Sequence record: MW741821.1
Direction: 5' to 3' (one strand)
DNA: 64,000 bases
DNA from: Escherichia phage vB_EcoP_DE5
In this document: positions 3,736 to 46,772 of the stretch, piece after piece
How the letters are laid out: the number at the start of each line of letters is the position of its first letter
Position numbering within the stretch: the first letter of the stretch is position 1
Position numbers and translations under genes: made by a program
Notes under the pieces: model-generated
Told to the model about the DNA's origin: nothing
Database searches by the model: none
Seen by the model: only the letters and a program-made list of their open reading frames with translations

Positions 3736-4050
3736 TTATGAGCTTAAAGCTCCTTTGCGTGCTCCAGCTGCTTTTCCAGCTCGATCACCACTTTTGCCGC
3801 CGTTTGAACGGTTTGAGCTGACTGATTCAACACGTAAGTTGCTTGACGCATTAGAGCCTCCAGACTTGACAGCTCGTTTGTGTCCAACATCTTTACCTCT
3901 GACAGCAGCTTTTCCATCGCGCTTTTCAACGATGCGACGTGCACGGTGGCGCTGAGCATCTCCGCTCTTGCTCCCAACGCCTGTCTCACCACGGGCAATT
4001 GCGGTACGTCTTTCTTGTGCATAATCTCTCTTTCCTACATGATCTGCCAT
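3736..4050 (-). CDS. hypothetical basic Gly/Arg/Lys-rich protein
   Basis: 104 aa; strong AAGGAG SD 8 nt upstream of ATG; an alternative overlapping frame 3744-4022 cannot be excluded. Confidence 0.35.
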   Translation of the reverse strand: MADHVGKRDYAQERRTAIARGETGVGSKSGDAQRHRARRIVEKRDGKAAVRGKDVGHKRAVKSGGSNASSNLRVESVSSNRSNGGKSGDRAGKAAGARKGALSS

Positions 4051-4106
4051 TTAAAACTCCTTAATATATCAGTGTACACTAAGGAGTATACATTATAAGT
4101 TACTGT

Positions 4107-41515: not shown

Positions 41516-43759
41516 ATGGCTAAGCAAAAATATAGTGAAGAGGTGTTGGACGAGTTACGTGTTGACCTTCAACGTCGTTTTAATTACGCTCAAGGTTACG
41601 TGGACATGGCTGTTAAGGGCTATGCTCGTGAAGCTTGGGAATATTTCTATGGTAACTTACCTGCACCAGTAACTGCTGGCAGCTCTAGTTGGGTAGATCG
41701 TACTGTTTGGGAATCTGTTAACGGTACATTGCAAGATATTATTAACGTATTCTGTTCTGGTGATGAAGCAGTTACTTTCGTAGCTGACAACCAACAGGAT
41801 TCTGATGCTGCTGATGTAGCAACTAAATTAGTTAACCAAATTCTTCTGCGTGATAATCCGGGATACAATATTATCTCTTCTGCTGCACAAGAATGTCTAG
41901 TTACTCGTAACTCTTTTATCAAGTATTATTGGGATGAACAAACTTCTACTCAAACTGAAGAAGCTGAAGGTGTACCACCGGAAGCATTGGCTGCATATGT
42001 TCAGGGATTAGAAGCTGGTGGACTCAAGAATCTGGAAGTCTTCACTGAAGAAAATGAAGACGGTACAGTAGATGTTAAAGTTACTTACGAACAAACTGTT
42101 AAACGTGTGAAAGTTGAATATGTTCCTTCAGAGCAAATCTTTGTTGACGAACATGCTACCTCTTTTGCAGATGCACAATACTTCTGTCATCGTGTACGTC
42201 GTTCTAAAGAAGATCTGGTTGCTATGGGCTTCCCTAAAGATGAGATTGAAGCATTCAACGACTGGACAGACACGATGGATACCACTCAATCTACAGTTGC
42301 TTGGTCTCGTACTGACTGGCGTCAGGACATTGATGCTGATATTGGTACAGATACCGAAGATATCGCTTCTATGGTTTGGGTTTATGAGCACTACATCCGT
42401 ACTGGTGTTCTAGATAAGAATAAAGAGTCTAAACTCTATCAGGTTATTCAAGCTGGTGAGCATATCCTTCACACTGAAGAAGTAACTCACATTCCGTTTG
42501 TAACTTTTTGCCCGTATCCTATTCCGGGTTCCTTCTATGGTCAATCGGTCTATGACATTACGAAAGATATTCAAGATTTACGTACCGCGTTAGTTCGTGG
42601 TTATATTGATAACGTCAACAATGCTAACTATGGTCGATACAAAGCCCTTGTTGGTGCATACGATCGTCGCTCTCTGCTTGATAACCGTCCCGGTGGAGTG
42701 GTTGAAATGGAACGTCAGGACGCTATTGACCTGTTCCCATACCATAACCTACCTCAAGGTATTGATGGCCTCCTAGGCATGTCTGAGGAGCTTAAAGAGA
42801 CACGTACAGGTGTAACCAAACTAGGCATGGGTATCAACCCTGATGTGTTTAAGAATGATAACGCTTATGCAACCGTAGGCTTGATGATGAATGCTGCACA
42901 GAACCGCCTCCGTATGGTATGTCGTAACATTGCTCACAATGGTATGGTTGAATTGATGCGTGGTATTTACAGCCTTATCAGAGAAAATGGTGAAGTTCCT
43001 ATCGAGGTACAAACCCCTCGTGGTATGATTCAGGTAAACCCAAAACAATTACCAGCTCGTCACAACCTCCAAGTTGTTGTAGCTATCTCTCCTAATGAGA
43101 AAGCAGAACGTGCACAGAAACTGATTAGCTTGAAACAGCTGATTGCAGCAGATGCACAGTTAGCGCCTCTCTTTGGTTTGGAGCAAGATCGTTACATGAC
43201 TGCACAGATCTTTGAGTTGATGGGCATTAAGGACACACATAAATACCTTCTGCCTCTGGAACAGTATCAGCCTCCAGAACCTTCTCCGATGGAAATCCTC
43301 CAGCTCGAGATGACTAAAGCACAGGTTGAGAACGTACAGGCTTCTTCTCAGAAGATGATTGCTGATGCATTCGACCAACGTGAACGTACTACATTCGAAC
43401 AGCAGAAAGCTGCGGATGAATTAAGTCTACGTCAGGAAGAGTTGCAATTCAAGCAAGAAAATGCAGCAGATGCAATGACTCTGGAAAACCGTAAAGAAGA
43501 TAACAATGCTACTCTGGAACAAGCTAAGCACAAGTTAGCTCTTATGCAACAGCAGGTCCGTCAGTATGAATCTGTACTGAAAGAATTGCAGATGGTTATG
43601 TCTCATCAGGTAGACCAAGAGAAGATTGTTCAGCAAGCTCGTGTTCAGGACAAAACTTTGGAACTCCAAAAGAAAGAAGCTAATGTAACTAAGAAAGAGC
43701 AACAAGCTTCTCTCAAAGATTCACGGATTCCAGGCAAACGTCTTGGAAGTAAAAACTAA
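41516..43759 (+). CDS. portal protein
   Basis: 747 aa, between terminase and scaffold/capsid; coiled-coil C-terminus. Confidence 0.65.
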   Translation: MAKQKYSEEVLDELRVDLQRRFNYAQGYVDMAVKGYAREAWEYFYGNLPAPVTAGSSSWVDRTVWESVNGTLQDIINVFCSGDEAVTFVADNQQDSDAADVATKLVNQILLRDNPGYNIISSAAQECLVTRNSFIKYYWDEQTSTQTEEAEGVPPEALAAYVQGLEAGGLKNLEVFTEENEDGTVDVKVTYEQTVKRVKVEYVPSEQIFVDEHATSFADAQYFCHRVRRSKEDLVAMGFPKDEIEAFNDWTDTMDTTQSTVAWSRTDWRQDIDADIGTDTEDIASMVWVYEHYIRTGVLDKNKESKLYQVIQAGEHILHTEEVTHIPFVTFCPYPIPGSFYGQSVYDITKDIQDLRTALVRGYIDNVNNANYGRYKALVGAYDRRSLLDNRPGGVVEMERQDAIDLFPYHNLPQGIDGLLGMSEELKETRTGVTKLGMGINPDVFKNDNAYATVGLMMNAAQNRLRMVCRNIAHNGMVELMRGIYSLIRENGEVPIEVQTPRGMIQVNPKQLPARHNLQVVVAISPNEKAERAQKLISLKQLIAADAQLAPLFGLEQDRYMTAQIFELMGIKDTHKYLLPLEQYQPPEPSPMEILQLEMTKAQVENVQASSQKMIADAFDQRERTTFEQQKAADELSLRQEELQFKQENAADAMTLENRKEDNNATLEQAKHKLALMQQQVRQYESVLKELQMVMSHQVDQEKIVQQARVQDKTLELQKKEANVTKKEQQASLKDSRIPGKRLGSKN

Positions 43760-45090: not shown

Positions 45091-45130
45091 TCGACAAATT
45101 AATTATTAATAGTATAGGAGCTAACATAAC

Positions 45131-46189
45131 ATGGCTAATCCAACTTTATTTGTATCGTATGACCAGAATGGTAAAAAACTTTCTTTTGCTAACTGGATTT
45201 CTGTTCTGTCCCCTCAGGATACCCCGTTCGTATCTATGACCGGTAAAGAGTCTATCAACCAGACTATCTTTAGCTGGCAGACCGATGCACTGGCAAGCGT
45301 TGACGGTAATAACGCACACGTCGAAGGCTCTCGTGCTGAAGACGGCGAAATGAAACCGACCGTTATCAAATCCAACGTTACTCAGATTCTGCGTAAGGTT
45401 GTTCGTGTTTCTGATACTGCTAACACCACCGCTAACTACGGTCGTGGTCGTGAACTGATGTATCAGCTGGAGAAGAAAGGTAAAGAGATCAAGCGTGACC
45501 TCGAGAAAATCCTTCTGTCCGGTCAGGCTCGTACCGACGTTCTGGCTGACCAGTATCTGACTAACTCTGCAACTGATCCTGCTGTTGTTGGTCTGAATGA
45601 CACCCATGCAGCTCGTAAGACTGGTGCATTCCAGTTCCTGTGTGCTCACGGTGGTCTGGCTGGTGGCGTTGTTGACAAGACCAAGAATGGTCCTGCTGAC
45701 CCGGACACTGGTGCAGTAACTGTTAAAGTTGCACAGAATGCTTCTAACCCGACCACTAACATTGGTTTCGACGAAGCTGATATCTTTGATATGACTCTGC
45801 AACTGTATACCGCTGGTTCTGAAGCAGATATCATCATGATTAACCCGGCTCATGCTAAGATCTTTGCTGGTCTGCAAGAAAATACTCAGGGTTCACGTAA
45901 GCGTATCTTTGAGAACACCAAGCAGTTCATCTACGAAGTTAACAGCATCACTGACCCGCTGGGCCAGAGCTACAAAATCATCGTTAACCGTTGGATGCCT
46001 ACCGATGCAGTTTACTTCTTCCGTAGCGCTGACTGGACTCAGATGGTTCTGCGTGCTCCGAAACGTACTGAACTGGCTAAAGACGGTTCTTACGAGAAGT
46101 GGATGATTGAAATGGAAGTTGGTCTGCGTCACCGCAACCCGTATGCTTCCGGCGTTCTGTTCACTGCTGCGGGAAAGGTGGTGGCGTAA
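45131..46189 (+). CDS. major capsid protein
   Basis: 352 aa; position after scaffold, codon usage typical of a highly expressed gene, strong terminator downstream of the extension ORF. Confidence 0.7.
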   Translation: MANPTLFVSYDQNGKKLSFANWISVLSPQDTPFVSMTGKESINQTIFSWQTDALASVDGNNAHVEGSRAEDGEMKPTVIKSNVTQILRKVVRVSDTANTTANYGRGRELMYQLEKKGKEIKRDLEKILLSGQARTDVLADQYLTNSATDPAVVGLNDTHAARKTGAFQFLCAHGGLAGGVVDKTKNGPADPDTGAVTVKVAQNASNPTTNIGFDEADIFDMTLQLYTAGSEADIIMINPAHAKIFAGLQENTQGSRKRIFENTKQFIYEVNSITDPLGQSYKIIVNRWMPTDAVYFFRSADWTQMVLRAPKRTELAKDGSYEKWMIEMEVGLRHRNPYASGVLFTAAGKVVA

Positions 46190-46713
46190 CAGTAGACAGT
46201 GTGACTGTTAGCCCTGCGTCTTTAGCAAGTCTAGAGACAGGGGCTACTCGGCAGTTCACTGCAAGCGCGGAGAAAAGTGATGGTTCTACCGAAACAACTG
46301 GCTTTACTTGGTCAGTGACAGGAGGTGGTTCTATCACTCAGTCGGGTTTGTATACTGCTCCGAGTGCGTCTCAATCCACTGATGTATCCATTACTGCAAC
46401 TTTAGAAGGTGTTTCTGGTACAGCAACCATTTCTGAAATTGTTGCTCCTGCTCCTACTATTGTGAGTCGTGGGCCAATTACAGGTAAAGTAGGTGGTACT
46501 ACCACTAACTTCAACACCATGTTTACTGTAACTAATTCTATTGCTGATGATTACACACTTGTTGTAACTCCCGCAGAAGCTGGTACAATAAGCGCTAATA
46601 ATTCGTTAAAATTAGATGCTGCTGCAAGTGGCGAAGTTACTGTTCAAGCAAGTTTGACAGCTGACCCATCCATCAATGCAACATGCACTTTTACTGGTGT
46701 AACACCTGCTTAA
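46111..46713 (+). CDS. Ig-like (Big_2) C-terminal extension ORF, probably expressed as capsid fusion by -1 frameshift
   Basis: Frame open from 46111, overlapping capsid gene end; slippery heptamer G_GGA_AAG at 46171-46177; hairpin ACAGU-GUG-ACUGU at 46196-46208; Big_2-like VTVSPASLASLETGATRQFTA...FTWSVTGGGSIT. Confidence 0.5.
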   Translation, partial: NGSWSASPQPVCFRRSVHCCGKGGGVTVDSVTVSPASLASLETGATRQFTASAEKSDGSTETTGFTWSVTGGGSITQSGLYTAPSASQSTDVSITATLEGVSGTATISEIVAPAPTIVSRGPITGKVGGTTTNFNTMFTVTNSIADDYTLVVTPAEAGTISANNSLKLDAAASGEVTVQASLTADPSINATCTFTGVTPA

Positions 46714-46720
46714 AACTAGA

Positions 46721-46750
46721 CCCTGCCTTCGGGCGGGGTTTTTTCGTTTT
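46721..46750 (+). terminator. Rho-independent terminator
   Basis: Hairpin CCCUGCC-UUCG-GGCGGGG followed by UUUUUUCGUUUU. Confidence 0.7.
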
Positions 46751-46772
46751 AAGACCTATACAAGCCAGTGTG

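Follow-up and report, generated by a model that had tools for sequence, protein, structure and literature searches.

The reading frame that follows the major capsid protein gene in this phage raises the question of how it is translated: from a start codon of its own, or as a C-terminal extension of the capsid protein. The window (the whole stretch of DNA that was analysed, 64,000 nucleotides) comes from a Kuravirus (phiEco32/SU10/ES17-like) podophage of E. coli, with nucleotide identities of 96-99% to Kuravirus genomes; over the capsid/extension region the identity is 97% with phiEco32 and 99% with ES17 and FS2B. The capsid protein matches the SU10 capsid structure (7z45, E 2e-235), and portal, scaffold and adaptor genes of the SU10 type flank its gene (PF17236, PF23899, PF24175). 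Our analyses indicate that a -1 programmed ribosomal frameshift at G_GGA_AAG in the Kuravirus capsid gene very probably gives rise to a minority capsid protein with two tandem Ig-like domains. The frameshift reading is already known, having been described for phiEco32 (2008), SU10 (2014), Privateer (2021) and YF01 (2023). Its basis here is the slippage signal, its conservation, the lack of an independent start, the predicted fold and purifying selection, while the long protein in virions comes from papers on relatives. The features are collected in Table 1.

Table 1. Positions of the features discussed, numbered from the first nucleotide of the window
Feature	Position	Strand	Details
Shine-Dalgarno AGGAG of the capsid gene	45116..45120	+	sole ribosome-binding site for both products
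Major capsid protein gene, zero frame	45131..46189	+	352 aa, 38.7 kDa; PF17236 SU10_MCP, E 9e-77
Slippery heptamer G_GGA_AAG	46171..46177	+	X_XXY_YYZ register; capsid frame GCG GGA AAG
-1-frame extension, read only after a slip	46177..46713	+	178 codons + stop; PHROG 13745 'Ig domain containing protein', 2e-75
Candidate 3' stimulator hairpin 1	46178..46217	+	core 7-bp stem UAACAGU/ACUGUUA
Ig-like domain 1, Big_2-type	46186..46440	+	extension residues ~4-88; sub-threshold Pfam Big_2, AlphaFold2 model, LigA 8gyr match
Small hairpin ACAGU-GUG-ACUGU	46196..46208	+	18 nt 3' of the heptamer; -4.5 kcal/mol
Alternative long irregular hairpin	46197..46261	+	-34.5 kcal/mol, z -2.7; RNAalifold consensus
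GTG taken as 'Ig domain protein' start by GenBank annotators	46201..46203	+	extension residue 9
Apical stem-loop common to both fold models	46218..46238	+	compensatory changes
Ig-like domain 2	46450..46710	+	extension residues ~92-178; beta-sandwich, no Pfam family; PHROG 33551
Intrinsic terminator at the end of the capsid transcription unit, 3' of the extension	46718..46751	+	10-bp stem, 6 G-C pairs, T run

The slippery heptamer and the frame behind it

From 46111, the -1 frame stays open up to 46713, overlapping the last 26 capsid codons and continuing for 174 codons past the capsid stop. The sequence-only reading had reported this overlap and the in-frame heptamer within it, both of which we confirmed, and had proposed a -1 programmed frameshift that fuses about 180 residues to the capsid protein; 178 residues were computed, and the proposal is supported by every sequence test run and by the literature on near-identical phages. 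The heptamer ends 9 nt 5' of the capsid stop and is the sole in-frame X_XXY_YYZ heptamer in the capsid gene. In 4.3% of shuffles of the capsid codons, any such heptamer fell within the last 26, and in 0.5% one of the form X_XXA_AAG did. The Gly and Ala codons of G_GGA_AAG are the least used in this gene, GGA being the only one of its kind among 26 Gly codons and GCG accounting for two of 35 Ala codons, and given the gene's own codon usage the probability of this codon choice is ~0.001.

Among Kuravirus isolates and metagenomes, GGGAAAG is invariant across 22 distinct sequences. Two phages with a capsid protein identity of 57%, Cronobacter phage 009 and Proteus phage Privateer, also have it at the end of the capsid gene, and the -1 register of the extension relative to the capsid gene is kept across genera together with the heptamer. 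All heptamer-bearing relatives carry the extension in the -1 frame, with lengths ranging from 178 to 545 aa, and the frame is open in every relative examined except SU10. In Vibrio phage Vp_R1 and Aeromonas phage APT65, no extension was found after the capsid gene copy examined, which in APT65 is the third of three capsid paralogues. For efficiency in E. coli, G_GG.A_AA.G ranks in the top three of the -1 motifs (PMC4066793). The window has one further X_XXA_AAG motif, A_AAA_AAG (minus strand, 16584), which is followed by a -1 frame that is shut after 4 codons, with no programmed product apparent.

For the majority of ribosomes, the capsid gene would end as GCG GGA AAG GTG GTG GCG TAA, giving the 352-aa capsid protein, whereas a minority would slip one base back at the heptamer, the Gly tRNA re-pairing on GGG and the Lys tRNA on AAA. 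The slipped ribosomes would translate 178 more codons in the -1 frame, yielding a capsid protein of 527 aa with C-terminal Ig domains (extension GGGVTVDS...TPA) and a predicted mass of 55.9 kDa, as compared with 38.7 kDa for the short form. The long form would co-assemble with the short form, and some capsid subunits would therefore bear a surface Ig module. The capsid gene and the extension belong to one transcription unit: there is no terminator between the capsid stop and the extension, and a terminator is annotated in SU10 and Paul in the place equivalent to the one that closes the unit here.

The long form could also be produced by RNA polymerase slipping on the G3A3 tract instead of by ribosomal slippage, with an identical protein outcome, which is the only point in its favour, as nothing specific speaks for it. 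Productive transcriptional slippage needs homopolymer runs of approximately seven or more A or T; however, the site has just GGG and AAA, and the conserved exact X_XXY_YYZ register matters only for tRNA re-pairing. We give this explanation almost no credence.

Translation and fold of the extension

Most GenBank records, and RefSeq records as well, show a separate 'Ig domain containing protein' at this locus. If the frame were indeed a separate gene, it would be translated from its own start, at the GTG at 46201 or a later codon, into a free protein of ~17 kDa, bound to the capsid or not. This was assumed in the cryo-EM paper on SU10, in which gp10 was discussed as a possible low-affinity minor capsid protein (PMC9509320), and the extension weakly matches a PHROG for Hoc-like head decoration (E 6.5e-4), which points the same way. 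However, the first 57 extension codons contain no ATG, and no Shine-Dalgarno sequence was found 5-12 nt upstream of the GTG, although the neighbouring genes all have AGGAG or AAGGAG 6-10 nt 5' of their ATG. The GTG is not conserved either, being GTA or ATA in 11 of the 16 distinct relatives and a TCT codon in SU10, where it follows a 1-nt insertion, and the starts chosen by gene callers in the relatives are scattered over at least seven different places inside the domain. In the AlphaFold2 model the GTG sits within the first beta-strand of the domain (extension residues 6-12), so that this strand starts 5' of it, and remote bacterial Big_2 homologues likewise begin upstream. The conservation of the -1 register and the heptamer across genera also argues against a separate gene. 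The GTG, a start that the sequence-only reading had raised against its own proposal, is thus disfavoured and is probably not a real start, and we regard an independent gene as quite unlikely. Trypsin would release from the predicted long form the peptide GGGVTVDSVTVSPASLASLETGATR, the first eight residues of which come from codons 5' of the GTG.

A further alternative to the frameshift treats both the heptamer and the openness of the -1 frame as incidental, and the Ig frame as an untranslated remnant of a recombined module. In the SU10 sequence, a 1-nt insertion shuts the -1 frame after 11 codons, and this line lost the open frame without apparent harm, which favours a remnant and suggests that the extension is dispensable in culture; the Ig module is likely dispensable in the laboratory. 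Against a remnant, the extension is under purifying selection at the protein level (-1-frame dN/dS 0.14-0.29), the frame has stayed open in all relatives examined but SU10, the heptamer is made up of rare codons and the structure model is of high confidence. In addition, the long capsid form has been detected in virions of Privateer, as two capsid bands on SDS-PAGE and by mass spectrometry (PMC7881722). An untranslated remnant is, in our view, hardly credible.

For SU10 itself, a -1 frameshift has been published, with phiEco32 (Savalia 2008) cited as the precedent, and mass spectrometry was reported to cover the long form with 22 peptides (50.3% coverage) and the short form with 23 peptides (78.1%) (PMC4281155). 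These figures are as would be expected from the shared capsid peptides alone, and they would not constitute independent proof. In the cryo-EM study of SU10, neither Ig density nor a long band was seen (PMC9509320); however, SU10 is the phage whose -1 frame is shut early by the 1-nt insertion. The claim of a long protein in SU10 is doubtful.

The sequence-only reading had also assigned a Big_2-like Ig domain to the extension, and this assignment held at the level of the fold, whereas the Pfam match stays below threshold and two domains are predicted instead of one. A Pfam search at E <= 0.01 with the translation from 46111 gave no match. In a relaxed search with the extension from 46177, Big_2 (PF02368) was matched over residues 6-83 and profile positions 2-75 of 79 with 16.7 bits (E 0.007), short of the gathering threshold of 22.8 bits, while the homologous domain of phage Paul exceeds this threshold with 23.4 bits. 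As the Pfam search and a sequence search of solved structures (E 0.09) were both marginal, structure prediction was needed. The AlphaFold2 model of the extension has a pLDDT of 96.4, and its top match among solved structures is the tandem Big_2 domains of Leptospira LigA (8gyr, E 2.7e-11); further fold matches are LigB (2mog), a Big_2-CBM56 protein (7r3t) and gp8 in the phi29 prohead (6qvk). The model supports the predicted fold of the extension, a tandem of two Ig-like domains of the Big_2 type.

Candidate stimulatory RNA elements

The small hairpin ACAGU-GUG-ACUGU, which had been proposed to accompany the slippery site, is present where it was placed. Its low stability, its excessive distance from the heptamer and its lack of conservation make it an unlikely stimulator, the 5' arm reading AUACC, AGUCC, AUUCC or ACACU in 8 of the 16 distinct relatives; it is probably not a functional element. 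No canonical strong stimulator was found 5-9 nt 3' of the heptamer, nor was a Shine-Dalgarno-like element seen upstream of it. For SU10, a stem-loop that encloses the heptamer has been proposed, CUGCUGC...GGUGGUGG. It was rejected, as its folding energy of -7.4 kcal/mol (z -1.4) does not stand out from shuffles, 19 of 200 being as good, and it would already be melted by any ribosome decoding the heptamer.

Two other structures are better candidates than the small hairpin. The first is the 7-bp stem UAACAGU/ACUGUUA, which pairs 46187-46193 with 46204-46210 and lies 9 nt 3' of the heptamer, a distance that is raised to 12 nt in those relatives that have a 3-nt insert. In a 63-nt context, the hairpin that contains it folds with -23.8 kcal/mol (z -3.0). 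The 7-bp stem is invariant in the 16 distinct sequences, and the codons of both its arms show zero synonymous variation while the flanking codons vary; over the first 29 extension codons, there is no region-wide suppression at synonymous sites (0.29 vs 0.31), and only single stem codons are frozen. The second is the long irregular hairpin, which begins 19 nt 3' of the heptamer and is more stable than, and mutually exclusive with, the first hairpin. Its cells are paired in 98.8% of cases, as compared with 28-49% when the partners are slid. Compensatory changes are confined to the apical stem that the two models share, where columns 55/69 hold GC in 7 sequences, UA in 6 and AU in 3, and columns 56/68 hold GC in 11 and UG in 5, with no broken cells.

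Tentatively, the slip may be driven not by the small hairpin or the SU10 stem but by the conserved element at 46187-46261 with its two exclusive folds (the 7-bp stem at canonical spacing or the long hairpin), the balance of which could set the fraction of Ig-bearing subunits, and these subunits could add to the mucin adherence of ES17; this composite idea is speculative, and we consider it rather unlikely. The mucin adherence of ES17 has been ascribed wholly to the tail fibre; the paper describes this fibre as having no Ig-like fold, and the capsid extension is unmentioned.

Related capsid systems

The closest known systems are those of phiEco32, Paul and YF01. In phiEco32 (gp11/gp12), papers citing Savalia 2008 describe a capsid frameshift at the same heptamer and report its protein product, and such a frameshift is also described for YF01 (PMC9965538). 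The RefSeq record of Paul has a join annotation with the note 'Frameshift at GGGAAAG', and that of Privateer is likewise annotated as a join. The three phages share with the present one the capsid family, GGGAAAG at the same codons, a homologous first Ig domain and a terminator 3' of the extension. They differ only in the length and composition of the extension, which is 178 aa here and in phiEco32 and ~540 aa in Paul and YF01, and none differs in kind. Privateer resembles them in that its capsid gene, likewise of the SU10 type, has G_GGA_AAG at its end and is followed in the -1 frame by an extension that carries Ig domains (I-set and Big_2). However, its heptamer abuts the stop codon (GGGAAAGTAA) instead of preceding it by 9 nt, its capsid protein is 57% identical and its downstream RNA is different.

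The capsid frameshift described here works like the 10A/10B system of T7 and T3 but is not a member of it. In common are a podophage capsid in two forms, a -1 frameshift near the 3' end and a minor long form in the capsids (PMC5009743), and the gene 10 extension of T3 is Ig-like, as is the one here (PMC5009743; PMC9965538), whereas that of T7 is not. T7 uses the slip site G_GUU_UUC, in contrast to G_GGA_AAG, with a stimulator >200 nt downstream that involves the terminator (PMC5009743). The capsid proteins of T7 and T3 belong to another sequence family, while the capsid protein here matches only SU10_MCP.

A Big_2-type domain at the C-terminus of an HK97-fold capsid protein is also found in phi29 gp8 and in the second capsid paralogue of Salmonella phage 7-11, in which SU10_MCP and Big_2 lie in one frame. 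These fusions need no recoding, so that every copy bears the domain, unlike the minority proposed here. Hoc-like head decoration of the T4 type likewise displays Ig-like domains on the capsid. However, T4 Hoc is encoded by a gene of its own and attaches to the capsid after assembly, whereas the domains here would be a covalent part of the capsid subunit, and the extension, with no start codon and ribosome-binding site of its own, falls outside the Hoc-like class. Weak adherence to glycans or mucus has been proposed for Ig-like head decoration (bacteriophage-adherence-to-mucus model, as described in PMC7885116). The Ig domains of the long form presumably face outward on the capsid, and weak glycan or surface binding is their likely role.

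The capsid frameshift finding opens no new question, and its chief value is for annotation, as most Kuravirus records in GenBank/RefSeq list an 'Ig domain containing protein' on its own, with starts that are arbitrary, whereas the literature describes a capsid fusion. The right annotation bears on the interpretation of virion proteomics and cryo-EM maps, and it would allow coliphages that are therapeutic candidates to be recognised as bearing surface Ig modules, which is relevant to mucus adherence. The frameshift site could also be used as a natural position for display on the capsid.

The slip site at the capsid gene's end

Over 45131-46760, the window shares 96-99% identity with some 40 Escherichia phages, all belonging to Kuravirus (FS2B, 99.1%; ES17, 98.8%; phiEco32, 96.9%; SU10, 96.6%). 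Among solved structures, the SU10 capsid protein (7z45) is matched by that of the window with an E value of 2e-235. The sequence-only reading had placed a slippery heptamer within an open -1 frame over the end of this gene, and both were confirmed. The capsid frame ends in ...GCT GCG GGA AAG GTG GTG GCG TAA, with G_GGA_AAG in the X_XXY_YYZ register at 46171-46177, and between 46111 and 46713 no stop interrupts the -1 frame. Reading after a slip would continue as GGT GGT GGC GTA ACA..., giving ...FTAAGK-GGGVTVDSVTVSP..., an extension of 178 residues and a fusion of 527 aa (55.9 kDa), compared with 352 aa (38.7 kDa) for the capsid protein.

Features of the capsid region, in window coordinates
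Feature	Position	Remarks
SU10-type portal	41516-43759	
Scaffold gene and SU10-type adaptor gene		Also around the capsid gene
SU10-type major capsid protein	45131-46189	PF17236, E 9e-77
Hairpin 1	46178-46217	Core 7-bp stem UAACAGU/ACUGUUA, 9 nt after the heptamer
Long irregular hairpin	46197-46261	-34.5 kcal/mol, z -2.7; RNAalifold consensus
Apical stem	46218-46238	Common to hairpin 1 and the long hairpin; compensatory changes
Strong intrinsic terminator	46718-46741 and T run	After the extension stop

No other X_XXY_YYZ heptamer lies in frame within the capsid gene. Shuffling of the capsid codons put any such heptamer among the final 26 codons in 4.3% of trials; for an X_XXA_AAG heptamer, the figure was 0.5%. 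In addition, the codons of the heptamer are rare in this gene (GGA, one of 26 Gly codons; GCG, two of 35 Ala codons), and given the gene's own codon usage the encoding of Ala-Gly-Lys as GCG-GGA-AAG has a P of ~0.001. In E. coli, G_GG.A_AA.G ranks in the top three -1 motifs for efficiency; by itself it gives ~0.3% frameshifting, and a stimulator raises this greatly (PMC4066793). Within the long ORFs of the window, X_XXA_AAG occurs just once more, as A_AAA_AAG with GGAGG immediately after it, on the minus strand at 16578-16584 (ORF 16341..18032, minus strand); a slip there would meet a -1 frame shut after 4 codons and merely shorten a 563-aa protein by 79 residues.

The site was sampled at 31 loci from isolates, IMG/VR and metagenomes, yielding 22 distinct sequences. 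GGGAAAG is unchanged in all 22, while neighbouring synonymous positions vary. It also stands at the extreme end of the capsid gene (GGGAAAGTAA) in two phages whose capsid proteins are only 57% identical to that of the window, Proteus phage Privateer and Cronobacter phage 009. The ORF 3' of the heptamer is always in the -1 frame, with lengths of 178 to 545 codons, and SU10 is the sole exception. A 1-nt insertion in SU10 (KM044272, 2560-2582, corresponding to window 46190-46212) gives ACACTGTCTACTG, where every other Kuravirus shows ACAGTGTGACTG or a variant equal to it in length, and closes the -1 frame 11 codons past the heptamer, as the YF01 paper also points out (PMC9965538). The insertion may have arisen as a genuine mutation in the laboratory or as an error of sequencing; the closed frame accounts for the lack of Ig density in the cryo-EM study of SU10.

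The capsid frameshift is already published for this phage genus. In the SU10 genome paper, slippage on GGGAAAG is said to join Ig-like CDS10 onto the major head protein, 'as in phage phiEco32' (PMC4281155). The Privateer paper reported the same signal, two capsid bands and detection by mass spectrometry; by its account, phiEco32 and SU10 had also been seen to make the frameshifted product (PMC7881722). The YF01 paper extended the description to the entire Kuravirus-like group and explained the SU10 exception (PMC9965538), and joined CDSs are present in the RefSeq records of Paul and Privateer. In the 2014 mass spectrometry of SU10, the long form ('9+10') was covered by 22 peptides (50.3%, ~265 residues) and the short form by 23 peptides (78.1%, ~275 residues); we infer that the long-form identification may come from shared capsid peptides alone.

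Translation and fold of the extension

In the -1 frame, dN/dS of the extension is 0.14-0.29 in divergent pairs, and it is therefore a protein under selection. It might be translated independently from its own start, as implied by the annotation of a separate 'Ig domain protein' beginning at GTG 46201, the only early start-like codon. However, the first 57 extension codons contain no ATG, and the closest purine-rich sequence to this GTG lies 16-24 nt upstream; in every neighbouring gene, by contrast, AGGAG or AAGGAG precedes the ATG by 6-10 nt. In 11 of 16 distinct relatives the codon reads GTA or ATA instead, SU10 lacks the GTG as well, and gene callers have started the homologous ORF at at least seven different codons, mostly within the domain. 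Alignments with remote bacterial Big_2 proteins begin at SVTVSPA, upstream of the GTG, and the first predicted beta-strand comprises extension residues 6-12; as the GTG is residue 9, the strand begins upstream of it. No terminator or promoter was found between the capsid stop and the extension, and the strong intrinsic terminator follows the extension stop. Taken together, the dN/dS values, the missing start signals, the unconserved GTG, the domain start and the terminator position favour translation from the capsid gene's ribosome-binding site through a frameshift over independent initiation. The proposed fusion is supported by the heptamer, its conservation and the lack of independent start signals. 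The optimal-codon fraction, calculated with our own list of E. coli preferred codons, is 0.78 in the strongly codon-optimised capsid gene and 0.59 in the extension, the latter being similar to other structural genes.

The sequence-only reading had assigned a single Big_2-like Ig domain to the extension. The Ig fold was upheld, but two domains are predicted, and the Pfam Big_2 match is sub-threshold (16.7 bits against a cut-off of 22.8; residues 6-83, profile positions 2-75 of 79). A confident AlphaFold2 model built with 25 homologues (pLDDT 96.4) contains two beta-sandwich domains, at residues ~4-88 and 92-178. Of the solved structures, Leptospira LigA (8gyr, E 2.7e-11) matches it best, through its tandem Big_2 segment; other matches include LigB, a Big_2-CBM56 protein, the SU10 nozzle protein (its Ig domains) and the phi29 capsid protein gp8 with its Big_2 domain. 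In PHROGs, the extension hit 'Ig domain containing protein' (2e-75) and, weakly, a Hoc-like entry, and the homologous first domain of phage Paul, at 23.4 bits, is above the Pfam threshold.

RNA structure downstream of the heptamer

The hairpin ACAGU-GUG-ACUGU (46196-46208) that had been noted earlier is present 18 nt downstream of the heptamer, but it is a poor stimulator candidate, being weak (-4.5 kcal/mol), distant and without its 5' arm in half of the distinct relatives. The stem-loop of the SU10 paper, with the heptamer in its loop, was no better than shuffles (z -1.4) and would be unwound before the slip.

Two other structures are listed in the table. The stem of hairpin 1 is invariant; it lies 12 nt from the heptamer in relatives with a 3-nt insert. 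Synonymous variation is zero in its codons (extension codons 4-6 and 11-12), compared with 0.4-0.56 in flanking codons. Both hairpin 1 and the long hairpin use the ACUGUUAGCC segment and are therefore mutually exclusive; either of them, if any, is a candidate slip stimulator. In the apical stem, one pair occurs as GC (7 sequences), UA (6) or AU (3) and the pair next to it as GC (11) or UG (5); neither is broken in any sequence. These changes couple a synonymous Ser position with a non-synonymous position 14 nt off, which coding alone does not explain. As no more than four or five lineages stand behind these sequences, the compensatory changes are suggestive of an RNA element rather than proof of one. 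This conserved downstream element is a small new point.

Possible role and other routes to Ig-bearing capsids

Given the frameshift efficiency of G_GG.A_AA.G, a minority of ribosomes would slip and produce the long form, which most likely co-assembles with the short form, by analogy with T7 and T3 10B and as found in Privateer virions; the Ig domains would then probably face outward on the capsid. Frameshift-added Ig-like C-terminal coat extensions are known in T3, Lactobacillus phage A2 and Listeria A118, A500 and PSA (reviewed in PMC5009743). The frame loss in SU10 and its clean capsid map suggest that the module is dispensable in culture. ES17 (MN508615) is 98.8-99.1% identical over 46171-46713. 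Its mucin and heparan-sulfate binding was ascribed to the tail fibre and contrasted with Ig/Hoc-mediated mucus adherence (mBio 2021; PMC7885116); that study did not consider the phage's own capsid Ig extension, a small new point.

Evolution of the extension is much faster than that of the capsid protein (66-90% versus 93-100% amino-acid identity). Its length is 178-180 aa in phiEco32/NJ01 types and 372-545 aa in others. In the extension ORFs compared (Paul, EP335, Bas87, Bas88 and Bas86; L022, L024-L027), the first Ig domain is kept, with further modules appended after it. In Bas86, an HNH endonuclease gene lies immediately downstream.

Relatives achieve the same Ig attachment by differing routes. 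Kuravirus and Privateervirus have the G_GGA_AAG heptamer and a -1 extension. Without a strict heptamer, the capsid genes of three IMG/VR contigs (L010-L012, 3913-3945) and of Aeromonas-type phages (L013 and L020, Aeromonas phage 4_4572; 3913-4190) end in GUA_AAG_GCG_UAA, with the A_AAG tetramer only; among -1 sites that involve a single tRNA, this tetramer works best in E. coli. In the contigs, a GC-rich hairpin (GCGCCCcuacGGGCGU) follows 6 nt on (75-nt fold, z -4.9), and Big_2 is matched strongly twice in the -1 ORF (E 8e-35). In the Aeromonas phages, the extension is shorter, with an I-set Ig domain, and there is no marked hairpin; the 4_4572 record annotates the extension as a separate 'tail protein'. 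These sites probably represent an unannotated frameshift of a different type. The capsid gene of IMG/VR contig L015 (3300033688_000038, 3921-4055) ends in A_AAA_AAG_GCG_UAA, a dnaX-type heptamer, with a 42-aa extension lacking a Pfam match.

Two or three tandem capsid paralogues occur in Salmonella phage 7-11 (L019, 1982-4758), Cronobacter phage A24 (L028, 1800-3904) and Aeromonas phage APT65 (L021, 1069-3927). The second copy in 7-11 (585 aa) carries an above-threshold Big_2 domain fused in frame, so in 7-11, at least, duplication and not recoding would provide the minority decorated subunit. The second copy in A24 (361 aa) has only a short in-frame C-terminal tail, which matches part of Big_2 below threshold. 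No extension follows the capsid gene copy examined in Vibrio phage Vp_R1 or in APT65 (there, the third of three). This variety fits the published idea that Ig modules recombine in and are expressed as the landing frame allows (PMC5009743).
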